This document shows positions 14,788 to 58,202 of a stretch of 64,000 bases of DNA, in pieces. The notes under the pieces are model-generated. The model had not been told where the DNA came from. It was given only the letters and a program-made list of their open reading frames with translations, and ran no database searches. The stretch is from Cystobasidiomycetes sp. EMM_F5. Lineage: Eukaryota. The position numbers and the translations under genes are program-made. The stretch lies in the NCBI GenBank assembly GCA_051047955.1, contig JBPGPT010000003.1, positions 310,001-374,000 on the forward strand. Reading direction: 5' to 3'. Each line of letters opens with the position of its first letter. The first letter of the stretch is position 1.

Positions 14788-15131
14788 AATTTCCAGCTTT
14801 ATGGTACTTGGAGTCCGAGTGCTTCCAACGCGGGATGTTCGCACATAATGAAGTATAACAGCTGAATCCAGCAAACTATGGCTGGCAGACACGCCTATTT
14901 CGGGACTGACCTCAATCTAGCTGCTTTCAAGACCCCGCTTATTGACAGGCCACATCAAACCGAATGACCGTTCAAGTGGAGGCTTCTTACCGACTAACCG
15001 CTCTCGATCCGTCGGACAGTCAATTAGGCCACGGACCCCATAGCTAATTACTACCGGAATGCCGTTCATTCATCACTCTGCTCGGTCACGGAACAGCTCG
15101 TCAACAGCAAATAATCGCATCTGCATGCAGG

Positions 15132-16051
15132 ATGACCAAATTCTTCAGTGTGACAGCTCGTCCATGGCAGAATACGCATCTCCTCAAGCCTAAAGTGGAG
15201 CCTCCTCCAGACCCTCCCAAGACTGATCCGCCTGCACCCGGTAGGCAGAACTTCTTTTGGCAATGCCCTTTGGTATTGAATCTTTCTCGTTTCATAGTCG
15301 TGGTGACCTACAGCTTCTACATCAGAGGCCCCTACATTCGGTCACCCACTTTTAGCGAGTTTTCGCCATATTCTGCTCATCCCGTAAATCTCGCTGGAGT
15401 ACGCTATGCGACTGCGGCTCACCTGTACTGGTGTATTCGGCTCAGCACACATGCCGCCGTCGTCCAGGATCTACAATCTCATGCTGGCTTTCCACCAGAG
15501 CAGACAATACCACGTTTGCTTGCAATCGCTGCCACATTCAAACTTCCACTCAACAGCGACGTTGTATGGAAATGGAGACGGGACGGCATCATGCATGGCA
15601 TCATGGCCCTCAAATTTGCGCAACACAGCGACTTGCGCAAGCTATTGCTTAGCACGGAAGAGGTGCCTCTTGTCTATGAGCAAATCCCACCTGCCGCACA
15701 AGGCAGCTCAGTACTGGGACTACTTGTCGGTAGCAGTCCGACAGCCTCTCTGCTGCCAGCTGTTTACGAGTATGCTGATCTCGAAGAAGATATATACTGG
15801 GGTGCCAATCCTAATGATCCCTCTGACACTACTGGTAATGCATTGTAGGTCGTTGAGTGGAAGACCTGAATAGTGCTGACATAAGCCTTTTCCCCGACAG
15901 AGGCAGGATTTTAATGGATTTGCGGCGTCGCTTCAGAGCAGAGGAAGCGCAAACATTGAATCTCTGTCAAAGTTTGTCGGACGTCTGCAATTCTATACCC
16001 GGCAGTCCGACGTCTTTGAGGACATCCGAAGCACCCTTACCAGAAATGTAG
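15132..16051 (+). CDS. NADAR (YbiA-like) domain protein, copy 1, divergent
   Basis: FSEFSPYSAHPV, RYATAAHLY, IMALKFAQHSDLRKLLLST, DIYWG, GNAL|GRILMDLR. Introns 15241-15297 and 15845-15900. Confidence 0.8.
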
Positions 16052-16388
16052 CGATCTGTACCAGAAGTTCCTTCAATGCTCCCCTCGCAAATCTGACGCA
16101 TTTACACACCCATCGAGGCCTGGCGTTTGTCAAATGCATGTAAAACACAATATGTGGCGAGTTCAGTACGACATACGCTGGACTTCTGGACTTGTCTGAC
16201 AGACGTTGCATATGAGCGTGTTACACGGCATGTAGGCTGTGTCGCTTACAGATCTACGGACGCAAGTGACATCCAAGAGGACTGGCAGAGTGACTTGTCA
16301 AGGACATACCAGTACATGCCAGGTGTCTGATTCACTCACTATTTCCTCACGCAGCAGCGACATTGTCTCCGTAATATAGAGCGGCTAG

Positions 16389-17334
16389 ATGAATTGGTGC
16401 AGAGATTTTTGGACACCCCGCGCTCGCCCCTGGCACGCTAGTCCGGGCAAGGCTCCACAAGACACGGCATCGGACAAACTAGCTGCATCATCCGCCGTGG
16501 AGGAGCCCAAGACAGCAACATCAGCCCCGCCGAATGTAGATTGCGAGACCTCAGACGTCCCAGCGAGCCATGCAGATGCCGTAGGAATTGAGCCGAAGCC
16601 GGCAGACCCGTTCCTCTTCTTCTATCACTCAAGTGGTGTACATCTGCACGCTGAATTCTCACCATACTCACCGCACCCAATCATGTTTGGGGGTCGGTTA
16701 TATCCAACTGTCGCACATCTCTACTGGCTCGTTGCATTCAGTGGCCACACGAATATCGTTCGAGAACTCAATAGGCTGGCCGATATCGACCATCAAGCCA
16801 GTCTCGTCAGGGTAATTGCCATCGCACGAGCATACTCGGCTCTCGTCGCGTCAGATCCGTCTTTCTCCAAAAACCGTCTTTCCGTAATGTATGCGTTGCA
16901 AGCTATGAAATTTGCTCAGCACAGCAAACTGTGCGAGCGATTGGTAGCTACAGGCGATCGCCCAATAGTCTACAGTCAATGCTCGTCCCAGACGACCATG
17001 GACGTTGTCAGCCAGACTTCTGACCTTCCGAGCGATCAGCACAACTTGCACTTTGCTGTGGACGACCTCCACCTCGAAGACGATTCATTTTGGGGCACAA
17101 CTGCAAGCACAGACAAGGCTGCAGAGGGGAGTAATCACCTGTGAGCATACAGCATACCTTCACGCCTCGATGATTACTGACACATCCATATTTGGGATTG
17201 TTAGAGGTGAGATTTTGATGAAGCTTCGTCGTCAATACCAGGAAGAGGACGACGGAAACGTACTGTTGGAGATTTGCTCTGGCATAGATACCCTCACAGC
17301 ATCCATAGGGTTACCCACCTCGCAATGTTTGTAA
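16389..17334 (+). CDS. NADAR (YbiA-like) domain protein, copy 2, divergent
   Basis: AEFSPYSPHPI, LYPTVAHLY, AMKFAQHSKLCERLVATGDRPIV, DDSFWG, GSNHL|GEILMKLR. Intron starting 17141 is at the same position as in copy 1. Confidence 0.8.
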
Positions 17335-38491: not shown

Positions 38492-41400
38492 CTACAACGC
38501 TCGTCTCCGGTAGTACAACTGGATGTCGCCGCTAGATCCGTAGCAATACTTAGCACAAGCGGCAAGAGTGATATTGAGTGGTATAGGCTTGTCGTTGCAC
38601 AGGATCTCAACTTCGTCCTCAGGCAAAAGGCTAGGCTCTTGTATGCTCCCATCGAGAGCCAGATTTGTTGAGGATGAGCCGGACGACAAAGAGGCCCTTG
38701 TGTGAGACCGCGACAAAGTTGCACCGTTAGACCCCGAGTGAGCTTCGACAGCCGCTTGGTACTGTTGACGCTGCTTCCATGATTCCAACTCCAACTTTTC
38801 TGCTACGTAATGACACGCCTTCCGCATGCGAAGCATACGCGTAGCACTTAGGCGAGCATTGCTATAGAGGGAGTCAGCTTTCGCCATGTAGTGGAGCTCG
38901 AAACGCACCCGGACGGCAGCGCATCCAAACCTGCTTTGTCAGAGCCTTGATAGGGCTCTAATACGAAGGCGATCTTTACCGCGTCCTTCACAGCAGTAAT
39001 GTTGAGCAACGCAAACTCCAGCGCCCAAGCCGGAAGCTGTTGATCTAAAACATTTGCATCAGCCGCGAGACCGGACACGAGACCGCGATAAATGTTGGCC
39101 CAGGCGCCGACTTCAACAGATTCCTCGCCAACCATTATCGGCATGTCACTTGCAAACTGGATCTGGGGAGTGTCCGACCATGGTGACGGTTGGAACGACT
39201 GCGCGAAGATATTGTCTAGTACACGGGCGTGCATTCGCTCGGAAGTTGACAAGTGTGAGTACTGGCGAACCTCAAGACACCTCAGCCGACATATCGTCTG
39301 TAAACGAAATCGCTCACTTTGTCCGGAGCTTGCTGAGTCATCGGCCTCTCTTCTCTTTCGTCAGTAGCTGCTAGTGGTTCCACTTGACTTTCGCGCTTAG
39401 CATCGCGCTTGCCGAAGCTCTTGAATCGGTTCAGCTTGCCGGACTTTGCAGGACTGGGCCCGGCAGGAATCGCAGGTAAAGTAGGCTTTGGAGTAGATTT
39501 GCCACTCGATGCATCGCTTACGAGTTTAGGCTGACTGAAGTAGTCATTTTCTTGCGCACGGCTCGCAACGCTACCGGGCGTGGGCGGCGCCGTTCCCGGG
39601 ACGAATGGAGAAGCTGGAATTGTATCCAGGACAGATCCCACTGAAGCTGCCAAAGAGGTCGAAAGCAGTCGCGGCGAAGCCAGCTGGGCTGCTAGGTCAG
39701 CTTGTCCAGGTAGCACAGCTGGCGTGAGAGCCGGTGTGGCCAAGGCGACCGAGAATCCATTATTAGATCCAAATAGGGTACTCCACGTAGCGTTACCATT
39801 GCTGTCCACAATATTGGGCCGAGTCGACTCGCCTATGGAGATATGAGAGGGTCTACGCGCAGTCGGCGCAGACTTCAGGTCCACTGATGCAGACGAATCT
39901 GCACTACCAATGCTTGACACACTGCTGCTCAATTTTCGGGACTGCTTATTGCCCGTTCTCTCTTGTATATATCCGTCTAGCAGATTTCGCAGCACCCATT
40001 TGCCGAGATTTAGCCGCTGGTCGACTTTGTGGTCCGGGGTTGTAGGAACGCCTGCCTCATCTACGTAGACTTCAGCATCAAAGGCACGGTCTTGCGAGAT
40101 GTACACCATTAGCGAGCCAATCTTAGTATCGACTGAACACCATGCCGGAACCGCGGCCTCGCCTTCAATCTGAAGACGAACGAAATCCAATACGTCGATA
40201 GCATCCACATGCTCCGCGCTACGGGGGTCGCCGTTACTTTCAGAAGTGTCTATGAGCTGCTCTTGACTCGGTGCAGCGGCCTTCTGCATCGCAGCCTGCA
40301 TGTGCTTTGAAGCAAAACGCCCTATGCAAGCTCCCAAGACTATGTCCCAGACAGCCACTTCACCGACTGTGTCAAGGGAAATCACCGTTCGTCTGTCATT
40401 GAGCAATTCTGCGCGGATCAAACCTGGCCTGCCTTTGATGATAGCATCTGGCTTTGTCCGCAACGGAGTGCCATCTAGTGCAGATTCGCGGTCTTCGAAA
40501 TCACGATAGGCGGCAACATAGGCGTCACTCTTTGCATATTGTACACGAGACGCGCTGGTAAATGGTAGCTCATCACTCTCTTCTGCGATCGAAGCAGGCT
40601 TGTGCATCGGTCCAAGAATGCTAGAGGGCAGTGGACTATGTGACCGCATATAGTGGCTGGAAGGGCTTGCAAAAGCGGATGACAGATTAGTTGGTGGACG
40701 AGGAGCAGACAGACTCGATGACGGAGGCGTCACTGTAGCGCTACCAAACCCAGGTCCGAACGGAGACGTGCTGGGCAAGACCCTGCTTGATGATCGATGT
40801 AGAGATAAGACAGAAGCTGAATAGCCATGCCCACCAGCCGATTCGCCACGAAAGCCGTAGCCTGCTGGTCTAATATACGTATTGCCAGCGAAGAGCGGTA
40901 CGAGGCTTTCCAAGGGGATCCCGTTCAACGATAACGACGTGTGTTCTTTCTCCAACGTACTGGACAGAACGTCAAGCTCGTTGACCGGGCTCAAAGCCGA
41001 AGTGCCACTCCCAAAGAACAGACTACGGTCATCGTTTTGCCGAGCGACCGCAGGAGCGGTGTTGTTGGCTCGAATGATTGTCATGCCCGTGGGCGAGGAA
41101 GAATACACGTCCTGCGCCATATTGGCTGAACCCTGCCTCATTCCCGAGCGCAAGGACGACGGCCGTTGTGCTGAGATTGGGGAAGTAGGACCGCCTGACG
41201 CCGAACGCTGCTTGCCCAGCGGGGCGGATGCAAACGCGACCGACCGCTCATTGGAGACAGTACGTTGCAGCGAAGATAAATTAATCCCAGGTTCAGCCGC
41301 CGGCGTATCGAAGTCACGATTCGCTTGCTGCTGCTGCGAGTTACCTATTACGCCCATAGTAGTAGATGTGAGTTGACTGGACACGGATGTGCCAACATCA

Positions 41401-43655
41401 AAGAGAGATGATGGTAATCGCTGTCCGTCCGAGATGCTTCGTGGAGGTTGATGGCGAACCTGACGTTGAGCTTTGGGCTGAACGTCCGTCCATCTGGAAA
41501 TAGAAGAGGATCCAGATGCCGTCCACAAGAAAGTATCATCCACCGCGACAATGCGGTTTATGCCATCATTAGGACCGGCGATGCCTGAACGGGTATGATG
41601 TCTGTTGCGGAGCAATATCACGCATTCTCCTTCCGAAGCAATGTCGCCTGTACCAGCAAAGTCGACTTTGCAGACCGTTCCTGCGCGATCTCCAGAATAA
41701 AAGGTTTCAAGATGAGGTTGCGAGGAGAACAGAGACCAGACAGCATCAGCATGATGCGTGAAGGTAAACAGGCAGCGTTGCATTGCTAGCGACCATAGCT
41801 TGACCGTGGCATCTGAGGATGCTGATAGTAGATGCTTTCCGTCTTCCGACACGAGGATTGCTCGAACGTTGTCCGCGTGACCGACCAATCTTGCGGCCAT
41901 ATTATTGGTCTGACTTGCCGAGTTGGCTGAGGTGGTCGTTCGAGGATCGTACACGCGAATGAGGCGCTCTGGCGAACCGCAAGCAATAATGGAGCCCAAT
42001 GTATTGGTTCCGACGGCATAAACAGAATGATCCAGCGTATATTCGAGTAAAGGGACGGGACGCGTCTGATGTATGTCCCAGATCTTCAAGCGCTTGTCGA
42101 AGCCACCCGATGCAAGCCAGCCGGCATGCCGTGAATGAGCTAAGCAACGGACGTAGTCCGTATGAGAGCCAAGCTGAGCCGGTAGCATAGATCTGTGAGG
42201 GTCGTGCGGATTCCAGGCTCGAATGAAACGGTCAGAACTCGCGGAAATCACCGTCTATCGAACGGTATATTTCAGTTATCGGGAGAGGGAATTTTTCGAC
42301 TTCTCACTCACCTGATTGAGATTGCAAAGCAGCAAGTCGTTGACCCAGTCAGTATGCCCTCGGTGAGCTTGTCTGAAAGTCATTTGACCAAAAGCAGCGT
42401 CCGGAGACGCGCTCGATAAGGCTGCTCTATCCACCTGCCATCTGTGCTCATAGGGTAGTAAATTACTTGATGATGTATCTTTCGTTTCGGTGAGATTCAG
42501 GTCGGCGATTGAAGACCCTCTCCGACCGTTTAAGGATGGTCGGCCAAGTCCTACATCCAAGTGAAGTCCGTTGGAAAGGTGCTTTGCGTACGGATTCCGG
42601 CTATAAGATTGAGAAACCCCAGACGAGCCGCTGAAATACTCGCTGCTACGAGCTTCAGCATTTGCAAGAGATTCGACTTCAGGCTCGTCGATTTCGTTGT
42701 CGCTATTTGAAGCCTGGTCGTCATCATCCGAAGTTGATGGAGAGTCATAACTATCTTCGGCCCATTTTGGGCGATATTTGCGCGTGCTTCTCCCACTTGT
42801 GTTGATGAAGGAAGTGGAGCCCCCGTCGTACGAATTACGATTATGTAACCTGGTATCGCGATATCGAAAGTATGCTCGTGAATCTCTGGGTTTCAATGGC
42901 AGGCCCAGCTCCCACGCCGCTACGAGCCCATCCCTGCCGCCAGAATAGAGTATGCCAGCAGGAGTTCTCTTGCGAGATGGAGATGACGAAGAAGGAGAAG
43001 AGTCTATTATCGTCGAAGTATCTATTGCTAAAGCCGATATGCCGAGAGTATGTTCCGGATGACGCTGAGCGTGCGTCTGGTTTGGAGGATTAGCAGAACC
43101 CGTCGATTGTTTTCGTAGCGGTGTAGAGGTAGAGCGTCGCCTATTTGCTGAGTTGGTATTGCCAGAAGGTCCAGTTGATTTGAACGGCACTGGGGGTGGG
43201 GCACGGCGCGCTGTCGTCGAGCCTGAAGCTTCCAATAAATTGGACGAGTACGATGACTGTGTCGTCCGAGAGTCATCCTCAGCTAGTATGATGAGTGGGT
43301 TTGGGTTGCCGCGTTTGCTTCTTGCCGCCTTGTCGGGATCCAGTGACGACGGCAGAACAAGAAACGGGGGCGGCTGAGCTTCCGAGGGTGGGGGAATCAG
43401 ATAGGCTATTCTCCTTTTAGGGAGCTGAGATGCTGCTCTTTCGGCTGCTGCGGCCCTCTCTGCTCGCTCAATCGCAGCGTTTCTCTGTTCGGCGGCGTCT
43501 CGGGCTGCGATCCGGGCGTTCAATGCAGCAGCTGCAGTGTTTCCGCCGGCACGAGGTCCAGACATATTGGCCAACGACGGCGGAGGTACCATCATAAATC
43601 CAGACATTGTGACGGTTGTGGCTGTTGTCAGTGCTTCATTGCCGATTGCATACAA
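38492..43655 (-). CDS. WDR48/UAF1 (Duf1/Bun107)-like WD40 deubiquitinase cofactor; start may be a downstream ATG
   Basis: LYSGGRDG, HTDWVNDL, HTDYVRCLA, GHADNVRAIL, LLNDRRTV, WCSVDTKIG, NLGKWVL, RLSATRMLRMRK, VEILCND, IQLYYRR*. Confidence 0.93.
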
Positions 43656-55785: not shown

Positions 55786-56209
55786 TCACAATTCATCTCG
55801 ATGCCGATTTGCTGCATGTAGCATTGCGAGTAGGTCTTCCACACTGCGAAGTGAGCAGGCGTCAGCTCTAGTTGTTGACACCACAACCCCGTGATTGTCT
55901 GCAAGTCTGATTGACGGACGTGAGATCATCAGCATTAGAGACAACGCGCTCTCCCTCAGGCTGGTTATGCTCCGCATTCTCCAGGATTTCAGCGTCTGCC
56001 TTTTCCCGCTGCACATCGAGTTCTTGATCCTCCTTCATGAAGCCTCTCTGCGGGCGAAGCAGCTTTGGTTGACCTTCTCGGATGGCGGCACTCGGTGATT
56101 GTGACGATTCCAATGCAGCAGCCGATACGGCAAGCACCAGAAGCAGTAACGTGACGAGTGAGATGGTCAGACTTGCAGCAGATGCGTGGAACCTGCCTCG
56201 GTACCGCAT
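55786..56209 (-). CDS. Small signal-peptide protein ending in RDEL (putative ER-lumen resident)
   Basis: ISLVTLLLLVLAVSAAA hydrophobic N-terminus. After a GT...CTGAC...CAG intron the frame ends DDLTVEDLLAMLHAANRHRDEL*. Confidence 0.6.
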
Positions 56210-56510
56210 ATTCTGGAATCGGCCTATGCGAGACCGCAAGCGGTAGATGTCTGCCACCGGCAATGTTCCTTCGGAGGCGAAAGCTATAACGTAACGAAAG
56301 AATCCCGCATACAACAGAGCCTACAGTTATGTGGTTTACCTTCCCTTCAACTCCTCAGTCCAATGGACCAAGCCAAGCCACCTCAGCGGAGGACTGGGAT
56401 GGCTATTGCGCAACTTCTGATGACTAAGTAGAACGCAACAGGCTGTCGCGGACATCACACCCACTCGATACCGTGGTAAAGCGACCGTTCACAGCAGCTG
56501 ACAGCTTGAG

Positions 56511-57246
56511 CTAGAATAGCATGCCTCCAATCTGGTTGTAACACCGGGAAGTGGTGAATATCAGGATCGATCTCGAAAGCCAGAGGTCCACTATATTCAG
56601 GACAGACTCACCTGCTCGATAACGACGTCTATCGAATCATTGTCCTCCATGTCGAGTTTCATTGGCGTGTCATCGGCGTTGATGCGAGTACCATCGTACA
56701 AGAATTTGACCTGCGACATATAGAGTCAGCAAGGATGCCACGATTGTAGTAGGCACTCCTTACGGTGTTCCGGTCTTGCCCTGTAAAGTAGGGGAATTAA
56801 GTGCATGAGTTGACTGCTCTTCCCTACGCAAATACAGCCCACCGTTTCTGTCGGCATACGCCCCCATCAACTTTCCGAGCTTCGTGTTCATCTTGATCTG
56901 GGCGGGATTGGAGTGAGTAAAGACCATAAGCTTGCCAGAGACGTCATCCTACCTTGAAGAATGTTTCTGAACCGTGTCCGTCGACGACTTTGACTATCGA
57001 CGCGATGCGGGCATTCTGCAGTCAGCTTCCAGCTTCCAGCTCGCGTTGAATGGTGCTGTATTTGGAGAAGCGTGCACGGGTGTGACAGTACACTCTTTAT
57101 CCATCTGCCTTTGACCGGACTTGGTACTGTACACCAGGGCGCCTATGTTGCAACGCTCGACACCCCCCGCTTTGACGCAACTCACTATTGATATGCTCGT
57201 CGCCTGCCGGCCTCTTCGCCTCTGGCTGCTCCTCGTTGTCCGACAT
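56511..57246 (-). CDS. SMT3: SUMO (small ubiquitin-like modifier)
   Basis: Six exons give [97 protein letters not shown]. Confidence 0.95.
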
Positions 57247-57570
57247 GGTATTTGCGGCTCTTAGCTGGGCAGTCTGCTGTTTGCGTAGTTTTGGCAGAGA
57301 ATTGTCGGGAAGGCGACCTCGTTTCGAATGGGTCGTCGTTTACACGAGCCCCCAGCAGGCTTGATCAATTAACAACTCGACCATTGCCTGAGAGAGCAAA
57401 CTGCATTCCATAGACATCTTGATACGCTCTGATCAACGCCTGCTGATGGCATGACTGGCCGTCTTCGATAATATCGTACAGCGCGTCAGAATCTCAACTT
57501 GTTTTCAACGCAAGAACAGGGCAAGTCTGCGAATATCGGGCAGGCAGGACCGCTGTAAGCGAGCAACAAG

Positions 57571-58202
57571 ATGTCTCCAACACCGGAGACACCTCCTCGA
57601 GACGGAAAGGTGAGATTCGGCAAACAGCCTCGACCTGCATCGGTGGCAGCCGTAACGCGATTATCTATTTTGGCGGCAAGCTCGCTAACATTTTGTCGAC
57701 CATGTGCTGTCTTGCAGATAACAGTATGGCTGCCCCTGGACTGCTTCGCGGCTGTTCTGACAACTTTCCCTCTTGACGTAACATTGACTTTGCATACTTA
57801 TCAGATCAGAGTGACATGGCCGCAAGATCCCGAACCAATCGCATTTCGTGTAAAGGCAACAGCTCCGTTTCAGAAGATATTCAACGAGGTTCGTAACCTG
57901 CCGACCTTTGTTCAATGTGTCAAGAAAATTCGCTGAATCCTTGGGCATTGGCCCTGACAGTTGGCGAGACTGAAAGGTGTTGGTCCAGGCGCCTTCAACA
58001 TGATGCTGGACGGAGAGAGGTGCGCGCTAGGCGCCTCGCTGCAAAGCACAACTGACAACTGGCAAGCAGAATTAATCTAGAACAGACTCCAAAGATGCTG
58101 GAATTGCAAGATGGAGATTTGGTAGATATCGGCCTAGCGCAAGTCGGAGGGTCTCCGTTGCTTCGTGAAACTGCCAGCTTTCAATGCACCACATTCTGTT
58201 AG
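57571..58202 (+). CDS. Divergent second SUMO-like ubiquitin-fold protein with diglycine motif
   Basis: Exons 57571-57609, 57718-57723, 57805-57888, 57961-58019 and 58070-58202 give [106 protein letters not shown]. Confidence 0.82.

Follow-up and report, generated by a model that had tools for sequence, protein, structure and literature searches.

A divergent SUMO-family gene with an intact Gly-Gly beside SMT3 in a Cystobasidiomycetes contig

Fungi are described in reviews as having a single SUMO (as stated in the available part of PMC11986368), and a locus in Cystobasidiomycetes sp. EMM_F5 raises the question of whether a second, working SUMO can stand beside the first. The stretch analysed here, referred to as the window, is 64,000 nucleotides of contig JBPGPT010000003.1 (positions 310,001 to 374,000 of the forward strand, assembly GCA_051047955.1). 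It carries a canonical SMT3 (SUMO) gene on the minus strand and, in a divergent, head-to-head arrangement with 324 bp from ATG to ATG, a plus-strand locus that is seen only in fragments among the open reading frames (ORFs). Judged by profile scores, splice sites and residue comparisons, this second locus is an intact, standalone, single-domain SUMO-family paralogue with a predicted beta-grasp SUMO fold. The fold and the C-terminal handle appear to be kept, and the reader and enzyme surfaces to be rebuilt. The favoured interpretation, put forward tentatively, is that the product is processed and conjugated as a variant of SUMO, with an efficiency and readers that differ from those of Smt3.

Gene model and SUMO-family membership

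The model of the second gene consists of the following features, all on the plus strand, with coordinates counted from the first letter of the window.

57571-58202, plus strand: second SUMO gene, five-exon model, 106-aa product
57571..57609, plus strand: exon 1 of 13 codons, which starts at an ATG with A at -3 and encodes the flexible N-terminal arm, donor GTGAGA
57718..57723, plus strand: putative micro-exon of 6 nt for Ile-Thr, by which strand beta-1 (ITIRV) is completed, with CAG before it and GTATGG after it
57805..57888, plus strand: exon 3, 28 codons, end of beta-1, beta-2 and start of the helix
57961..58019, plus strand: exon 4, remainder of the helix, loop and start of the conserved DG.RI motif
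58070..58202, plus strand: exon 5, C-terminal half of the SUMO fold, AQVGG, 16-aa tail and stop codon
58146..58151, plus strand: codons of Gly89-Gly90, the presumed processing/conjugation site, aligned with G97/G98 of yeast Smt3
58152..58199, plus strand: 16-codon C-terminal extension after Gly-Gly, Ser first and two Cys near the end, no family match

On a SUMO profile of 67 PF11976 domains, which were taken from library matches of exon 5 and from two fungal SMT3 proteins, the spliced protein obtains 75.1 bits, whereas 1000 shuffled versions reach at most 5.5 bits; the neighbouring SMT3 scores 116.8 bits on the same profile. Since resemblance to exon 5 had decided which domains entered the profile, the protein halves were scored separately: either half alone scores about 30 bits, and the N-terminal 62 aa, which had no role in the choice of members, obtain 32.1 bits, where shuffled versions do not exceed 3.8. 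A profile built from just three fungal SMT3 proteins gives 33.8 bits for the second protein. Twenty columns reach a conservation of 70% or more in the SUMO domains, and in 14 of them the second protein has the consensus residue. The three aligned SUMO motifs, the QVGG and the 16-aa tail ending in CTTFC that an earlier inspection of the letters alone (the sequence-only reading) had described are all present, and the profile search and phylogeny that it had proposed as checks support a SUMO domain and place the protein outside the fungal SMT3 group.

Comparison with the neighbouring SMT3 by BLASTP gives 26 identities in 88 positions (30%) with one gap and 48.9 bits, and a tblastn search of SMT3 over the whole 64 kb returns the second locus as its only match (E 5e-5), with no third copy. 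Searches with the 43 aa of exon 5 point to the same family. The best 60 rows against PDB sequences are nearly all SUMO/SMT3 or SMT3-tagged fusions (best E 1.2e-4). Against 1.84 billion representative proteins (HMMER), 24 matches are obtained at E<=1e-3, 21 of which carry PF11976 in one to six copies, nearly all in tandem; the remaining three (P0014, P0019 and P0021) are unrelated repeat proteins. A ubiquitin or NEDD8 identity was considered and rejected, as no row so named occurs among the best 60 PDB rows and PF11976 is the best family of 21 of the 24 library matches. In the ESM Atlas, the best cluster for exon 5 is a Rad60-SLD/ubiquitin fragment at 0.86, under the counting level.

The splice sites and the coding frame are intact throughout. 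The introns measure 108, 81, 72 and 50 nt, and all four are GT-AG introns with G at donor position +5, like all five introns of SMT3. A CTRAY motif is present in each of them, that of intron 3 lying only 3 nt from the acceptor and too close to serve as a branch point. No stop interrupts the 106 codons, whereas the other two frames contain 8 and 2 stops; we estimate that a frame of this length would stay open after long neutral drift in approximately 0.6% of cases, (61/64)^106. The in-frame codon score is 0.099 per codon, compared with 0.148 +/- 0.066 for the long ORFs of the window and -0.088 +/- 0.093 for off-frame chunks. Splicing restores ITIRV across the junctions of the small exon, and intron 4 splits an Arg codon (AG|A) such that splicing restores DGERIN, a motif whose Gly and Arg are conserved in 96% and 75% of the domain set. 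The AQVGG is encoded by codons 86-90 (58137-58151), with Gln at -3, and is followed by 16 residues, the first of which is Ser. The five-exon model, the fragmentary ORFs and the spacing of about 325 bp given in the sequence-only reading are confirmed, as is the canonical SMT3 on the minus strand, for which a six-exon model with a PF11976 match of its exon 5 was obtained.

The putative 6-nt exon is the least secure part of the model. Three in-frame AG...GT inserts are possible at this place, two of them stop-free, and the profile score is 75.1 bits with the chosen exon, 69.2 bits without it and 67.5 bits for the alternative; its omission leaves the reading frame intact. SMT3 itself carries a 17-nt micro-exon (56764-56780, minus strand) and five introns in 97 codons, which suggests that very short exons are normal in this genome and makes a 6-nt exon less odd.

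Introns 1 and 2 of the second gene (57610-57804) are multiples of three and stop-free, and their retention would give an in-frame product of 169 aa. As a consequence, the gene is publicly recorded only as P0029, an ORF of 121 aa that reads through the introns and has no Pfam domain. Small intron-rich genes such as this one, with five exons of which one is 6 nt, escape ORF-based gene calls. A possible 52-nt intron is also seen at 58151-58202, with a GT that begins after the first two bases of the Gly90 codon and an AG contained in the stop codon; its splicing would place one residue and a stop after Gly-Gly, and it is unlikely because its donor lacks the +5 G found in the nine other introns.

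Conjugation handle and contact surfaces

Residue sets were taken from Table 1 of a yeast Smt3 study (PMC5319795) and mapped via the window SMT3, and the resulting offsets agree with the yeast residues named there; the counts below refer to the positions of that table. At the 16 core positions, the second protein is identical to yeast Smt3 in 5, and the other 11 are hydrophobic or small, compared with 10 identities in the neighbouring SMT3. Four of the nine contacts with the activating enzyme (E1) are identical (R71, Q95, G97 and G98), compared with five in the neighbour. At positions where mutations are lethal in yeast, F37, I39, R47, R71 and I89 are kept or conservatively replaced, whereas T43 is replaced by Ala, R55 by Leu and D30 by Trp (loop alignment uncertain). 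The equivalents of R71 (R63 here), D68 and G69 are kept. The first of the two SUMO signature hotspots, Glu67/Asp and Tyr91/Phe, as given in the available text of PMC12687455, corresponds to Smt3 D68 and is Asp60 in the second protein and likewise Asp in the neighbouring SMT3.

These features are compatible with the following course of events. Selection would have maintained the second gene through most of its history, and an Ulp-type protease would cut the 16-aa tail after Gly90 of the 106-aa precursor. The mature protein would then be adenylated by the SUMO E1 (Aos1-Uba2), handed to the conjugating enzyme (E2) Ubc9 and joined to lysines. Because the positions for Ubc9 contact, for the SUMO-interacting motif (SIM) groove and for E1 specificity are changed, loading, chain formation and readers would be altered: the protein may be loaded more poorly, or under other conditions, would build chains poorly and would bind partners other than those of Smt3. 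Quite probably the locus is a real gene on which selection acted at least until recent times. Given a real gene, the balance leans modestly towards conjugation of its product, which is suggested by the Gly-Gly, the Gln at -3, the equivalents of R71, D68 and G69, and the Ser after Gly-Gly. Extra SUMO copies without function elsewhere have typically lost the Gly-Gly, as with Arabidopsis SUM4/6/7/8, in the cases covered by the accessible parts of PMC7691676 and PMC11986368.

A number of observations weigh against a conjugatable modifier, and most of them concern the surfaces. The second protein is identical to yeast Smt3 at 2 of 15 E2 contacts (9 of 15 in the neighbouring SMT3), at 7 of 18 Ulp contacts (11 of 18) and at 3 of 11 positions of the SIM groove, with four further conservative changes (9 of 11); the different surface residues noted in the sequence-only reading are thus confirmed by the E2 and SIM counts. 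F65 and Y67 of Smt3, at which Ala and Glu changes are lethal, are replaced by Met and Leu. Glu93 of SUMO1, which is Gln in SUMO2/3 and equivalent to Arg72 of ubiquitin, is described as the E1 specificity point in the available text of PMC12687455; the corresponding residue is Glu in both the neighbouring and the yeast Smt3 and Ala86 in the second protein, which is neither the residue of SUMO nor the clashing Arg of ubiquitin. The Tyr91/Phe hotspot is Gly84 in the second protein; at this position the neighbouring SMT3 carries Val and the yeast protein His, which indicates that the aromatic hotspot is not strict in fungi. Additionally, the tail of 16 aa compares with 3 aa in the window SMT3 and 1 aa in the Cystobasidium protein. 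A CaaX-type lipid anchor on this tail is ruled out by its Cys residues, which stand at -5 and at the last position.

Composition and the searches for relatives weigh in the same direction. At third codon positions, the GC content (GC3) of the second gene is 0.45; SMT3 reaches 0.71, a gene for a ribosomal protein 0.67, and six further coding pieces lie in the range 0.51-0.65. With exon 5 as query, no orthologue was found among longer proteins, where the query is 43 aa and relatives would appear as intron-blind ORF calls, and no close single-domain relative was found among the 1.84 billion representatives, a weak search with the same 43-aa query. With the 5' read-through ORF as query, only the ORF call from the window itself (P0029) was returned. 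Finally, a Pfam scan run on single exons of the second gene gives no family.

Competing explanations

The low GC3 is the main hint of relaxed selection and fits either low expression or relaxed selection. It may be that the locus is a silent relic, an old SUMO duplicate that was functional for long and is now unexpressed or decaying, intact by chance; this is considered unlikely, and it is the alternative that survives best. The GC3 is the lowest of the nine coding pieces and lies near intron and genome composition, the terminal branch in the tree is long (0.83, compared with a median of 0.32), the weak searches found no orthologue and the public collection holds just the intron-blind ORF call, all of which is consistent with a relic. 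On the other side stand the absence of any stop or frameshift, the eight intact splice dinucleotides (8 of 8) together with the +5 G of every donor, the hydrophobic or small core, the intact Gly-Gly and the positive in-frame codon score. With frame, splice sites, core and Gly-Gly all intact, any inactivation would need to be very recent.

The heavily changed enzyme contacts (2 of 15 for E2 and 7 of 18 for Ulp) beside a kept fold, the Ala at the E1 specificity position and the unusually long 16-aa tail with two Cys would also suit an expressed SUMO-like protein that is not conjugated and works non-covalently, for instance as an adaptor or decoy towards some of the proteins that bind SUMO or belong to its pathway. 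In this case the Cys-bearing tail might be retained and could serve lipid or redox attachment. SUMO-like domains without conjugation are already a known kind, and Pfam PF11976 takes its name from those of Rad60. Such a role is rather doubtful, since the Gly-Gly, the Gln at -3 and the equivalents of R71 and D68-G69 are kept despite 29-30% identity to the neighbour, and since the tail contains no CaaX box for lipid attachment. Known non-conjugated copies usually lack the Gly-Gly, as far as the accessible part of the survey (PMC7691676) reports them.

An improbable extension of the conjugatable-modifier interpretation is that the second gene encodes the modifier of a distinct, lineage-restricted SUMO branch (here 'SUMO-B'), which the shared E1 would pick or reject via Ala86 and which, with its Ubc9-back and SIM-groove surfaces rebuilt, would form no chains and have partners of its own. 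Selection at the E1 has an analogy in the acetylation of SAE2, which shifts the choice between SUMO1 and SUMO2/3. If the 'SUMO-B' interpretation were true, a basidiomycete yeast lineage would show the kind of SUMO paralogue specialisation that has so far been studied in animals and plants. A separate conjugation system had been proposed in the sequence-only reading and receives no support from the window: 65 of its 77 ORFs of at least 130 aa were scanned, and none contains a ThiF, UQ_con or Peptidase_C48 domain (E1, E2 and Ulp, respectively).

Membership of a larger gene, either of the Rad60/Esc2/NIP45 type, which the sequence-only reading had named as a possible refutation, or of a tandem poly-SUMO gene, is very improbable. 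Pfam does place SUMO and the SUMO-like domains of Rad60 in one family, and the best library matches of exon 5 are tandem poly-SUMO proteins. The flanking genes leave no room, as SMT3 starts 324 bp upstream in the opposite orientation and a minus-strand TPR-repeat gene begins approximately 340 bp past the stop codon. Together with an own ATG (A at -3) and stop, a single domain and the kept Gly-Gly, this excludes both architectures. Proteins of the Rad60/Esc2/NIP45 kind have two C-terminal SUMO-like domains in a larger protein without Gly-Gly, where the second gene has one domain in 106 aa with Gly-Gly; tandem poly-SUMO chains have at least two repeats, where the second gene has a single domain and the 64 kb contain no additional SUMO-like stretch according to tblastn.

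A chance resemblance in non-coding DNA, to which the lack of a Pfam match for single exons and the empty PDB search with exon 3 alone might point, is refuted by the score of 75.1 bits against at most 5.5 bits in 1000 shuffles and by the two halves that score about 30 bits each independently, and its probability is negligible.

Ancestry, the SMT3 neighbour and known SUMO systems

The neighbouring gene and the spacer comprise the following features.

56511..57246, minus strand: canonical SMT3 (SUMO) gene, six exons, model built from sequence
57246-57186, 56993-56953, 56897-56843, 56780-56764, 56710-56612 and 56531-56511, minus strand: the exons of SMT3
57247..57570, no strand: spacer between the divergent ATGs, presumed common 5' region, 324 bp

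The SMT3 product is 97 aa long and ends in EQIGG followed by three residues. Its exon 5 by itself matches Pfam PF11976 (5.5e-10). Among 10 candidates, the named proteins closest to this exon come from Cystobasidium minutum and from a metagenome-assembled genome of the Cyphobasidiales; both are SMT3, with 81-84% identity. On this one short query, the window probably belongs to a basidiomycete close to the Cystobasidiomycetes.

A comparison of the two genes reveals no trace of a recent copying event. Between the coding sequences, blastn gives chance-level matches only and no DNA similarity, and a repeat search for traces of an inverted duplication between the two genes likewise finds chance-level matches only. 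The intron positions differ, as the sequence-only reading had stated, and none is exactly common to both genes. The nearest pair lies 1 nt apart: intron 2 of the second gene directly precedes the codon of Ile16 (phase 0), and intron 1 of SMT3 interrupts that of Ile21, the residue aligned with it (phase 1). The two may descend from one ancestral intron, or their proximity may be coincidental.

Over 77 core columns, the second protein is 29% identical to the neighbouring SMT3, 29-31% identical to two other fungal SMT3 proteins and 39-45% identical to tandem SUMO domains. A quick tree of 69 rows and 79 columns, built by maximum likelihood, groups the three fungal SMT3 proteins with an SH-aLRT value of 98, and the second protein falls outside this group, on its long branch among the tandem-SUMO domains. 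The sample of the tree was chosen by likeness to exon 5, and the tree therefore shows only that the protein is no recent SMT3 copy and not where it originated. The old duplication suggested in the sequence-only reading is accordingly upheld as to age if the duplication was local, as the missing DNA similarity and the position outside the fungal SMT3 group support.

A metagenome scan with the 48-aa ORF of exon 5 returned one locus (L001), which is an unrelated tandem SUMO gene and no orthologue. This gene, at positions 1-950 of a metagenome contig, contains introns and belongs to an unrelated eukaryote; its C-terminal half shares 61% identity with exon 5.

The spacer contains short, chance-level repeats only, according to the repeat search of this region. 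Co-regulation of the two genes from a shared promoter, as claimed in the sequence-only reading, would be suggested by the 324-bp spacing, whereas the GC3 gap between the second gene and SMT3 (0.45 and 0.71) argues for unlike expression of the two; the claim is not sustained.

The second gene resembles SUMO/Smt3 proper (the neighbouring SMT3, yeast Smt3 and human SUMO1-3) in its single beta-grasp domain of approximately 75 aa behind a short flexible arm, in the DG.RI and TP..L...D.D motifs, in the Q-x-G-G followed by a predicted removable tail and in being a small standalone gene. It differs from them in its identity of 29-30% to its own neighbour, in the Ala at the E1 specificity position and the Gly at the Tyr91/Phe hotspot, in the Ubc9 and SIM surfaces, which are mostly changed, in the 16-aa tail and in the low GC3.

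The statement of the sequence-only reading that fungi have a single SUMO gene is true of model fungi and does not hold for all. In the accessible part of a survey of 41 fungi (PMC7691676), five have more than one Smt3 orthologue, namely Rhizophagus irregularis with five and Botrytis cinerea, Thielavia terrestris, Trametes versicolor and Schizophyllum commune with two each; Puccinia graminis, a Pucciniomycotina species in the survey table, has one copy. A second fungal SUMO-family gene beside the canonical one is therefore already a known kind. Several of the surveyed extra copies are reported there to lack the Gly-Gly, unlike the second gene, which keeps it. Arabidopsis SUM4/6/7/8, described in the available part of PMC11986368 as diverged, non-expressed or non-conjugatable SUMO duplicates without the di-glycine, are likewise diverged extra copies and differ in the same respect.

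Of the sequences found, the most similar to the second protein are the tandem poly-SUMO or di-SUMO-like proteins (P0005-P0028), with which it shares the TPKMLEL.DGD stretch; these contain two to six domains per chain, whereas the second gene encodes one. Their resemblance to exon 5 was the ground for selecting them, so that this closeness is no proof of ancestry. Rad60, Esc2 and NIP45 contain paired SUMO-like domains at the end of large proteins, which lack the Gly-Gly and are not conjugated; the second protein shares with them the Pfam family (PF11976) and the fold, and differs in its single domain within 106 aa and in the presence of the Gly-Gly. Particular to the second gene is the combination of extreme divergence, a kept Gly-Gly, a long Cys-bearing tail and the head-to-head placement with SMT3, and a full-text literature search brought up no publication that describes a SUMO pair arranged head to head or a second SUMO from Cystobasidiomycetes.

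Studies of sumoylation in fungi take a single SUMO for granted, and the few extra copies of the survey are uncharacterised. An intact, Gly-Gly-bearing SUMO with rewired surfaces beside SMT3 would be a natural experiment on which surfaces may change in a usable modifier, and it could show how the choice of paralogue by E1, E2, proteases and SIM readers evolves.

Tandem poly-SUMO proteins with two to six PF11976 domains are widespread in the protein library, which is at odds with the textbook view of one SUMO per fungus. One library cluster (P0006/P0034) includes a 399-aa SUMO-repeat protein with four domains from the ascomycete Cadophora sp. (KAH7381855.1).

Elsewhere in the window, a 150-aa open frame lies directly downstream of SMT3 (55868-56320, minus strand), with a hydrophobic stretch and without a Pfam match. 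A large gene with WD40 repeats and then DUF3337 is located at 38495-42251 on the minus strand and is probably unrelated to the second SUMO gene; it resembles the deubiquitinase activators of the WDR48/UAF1 type, which end in SUMO-like domains. Two adjacent ORFs at 15048-17141 on the plus strand each contain a NADAR domain (E approximately 1e-8), which suggests a tandem duplicate.

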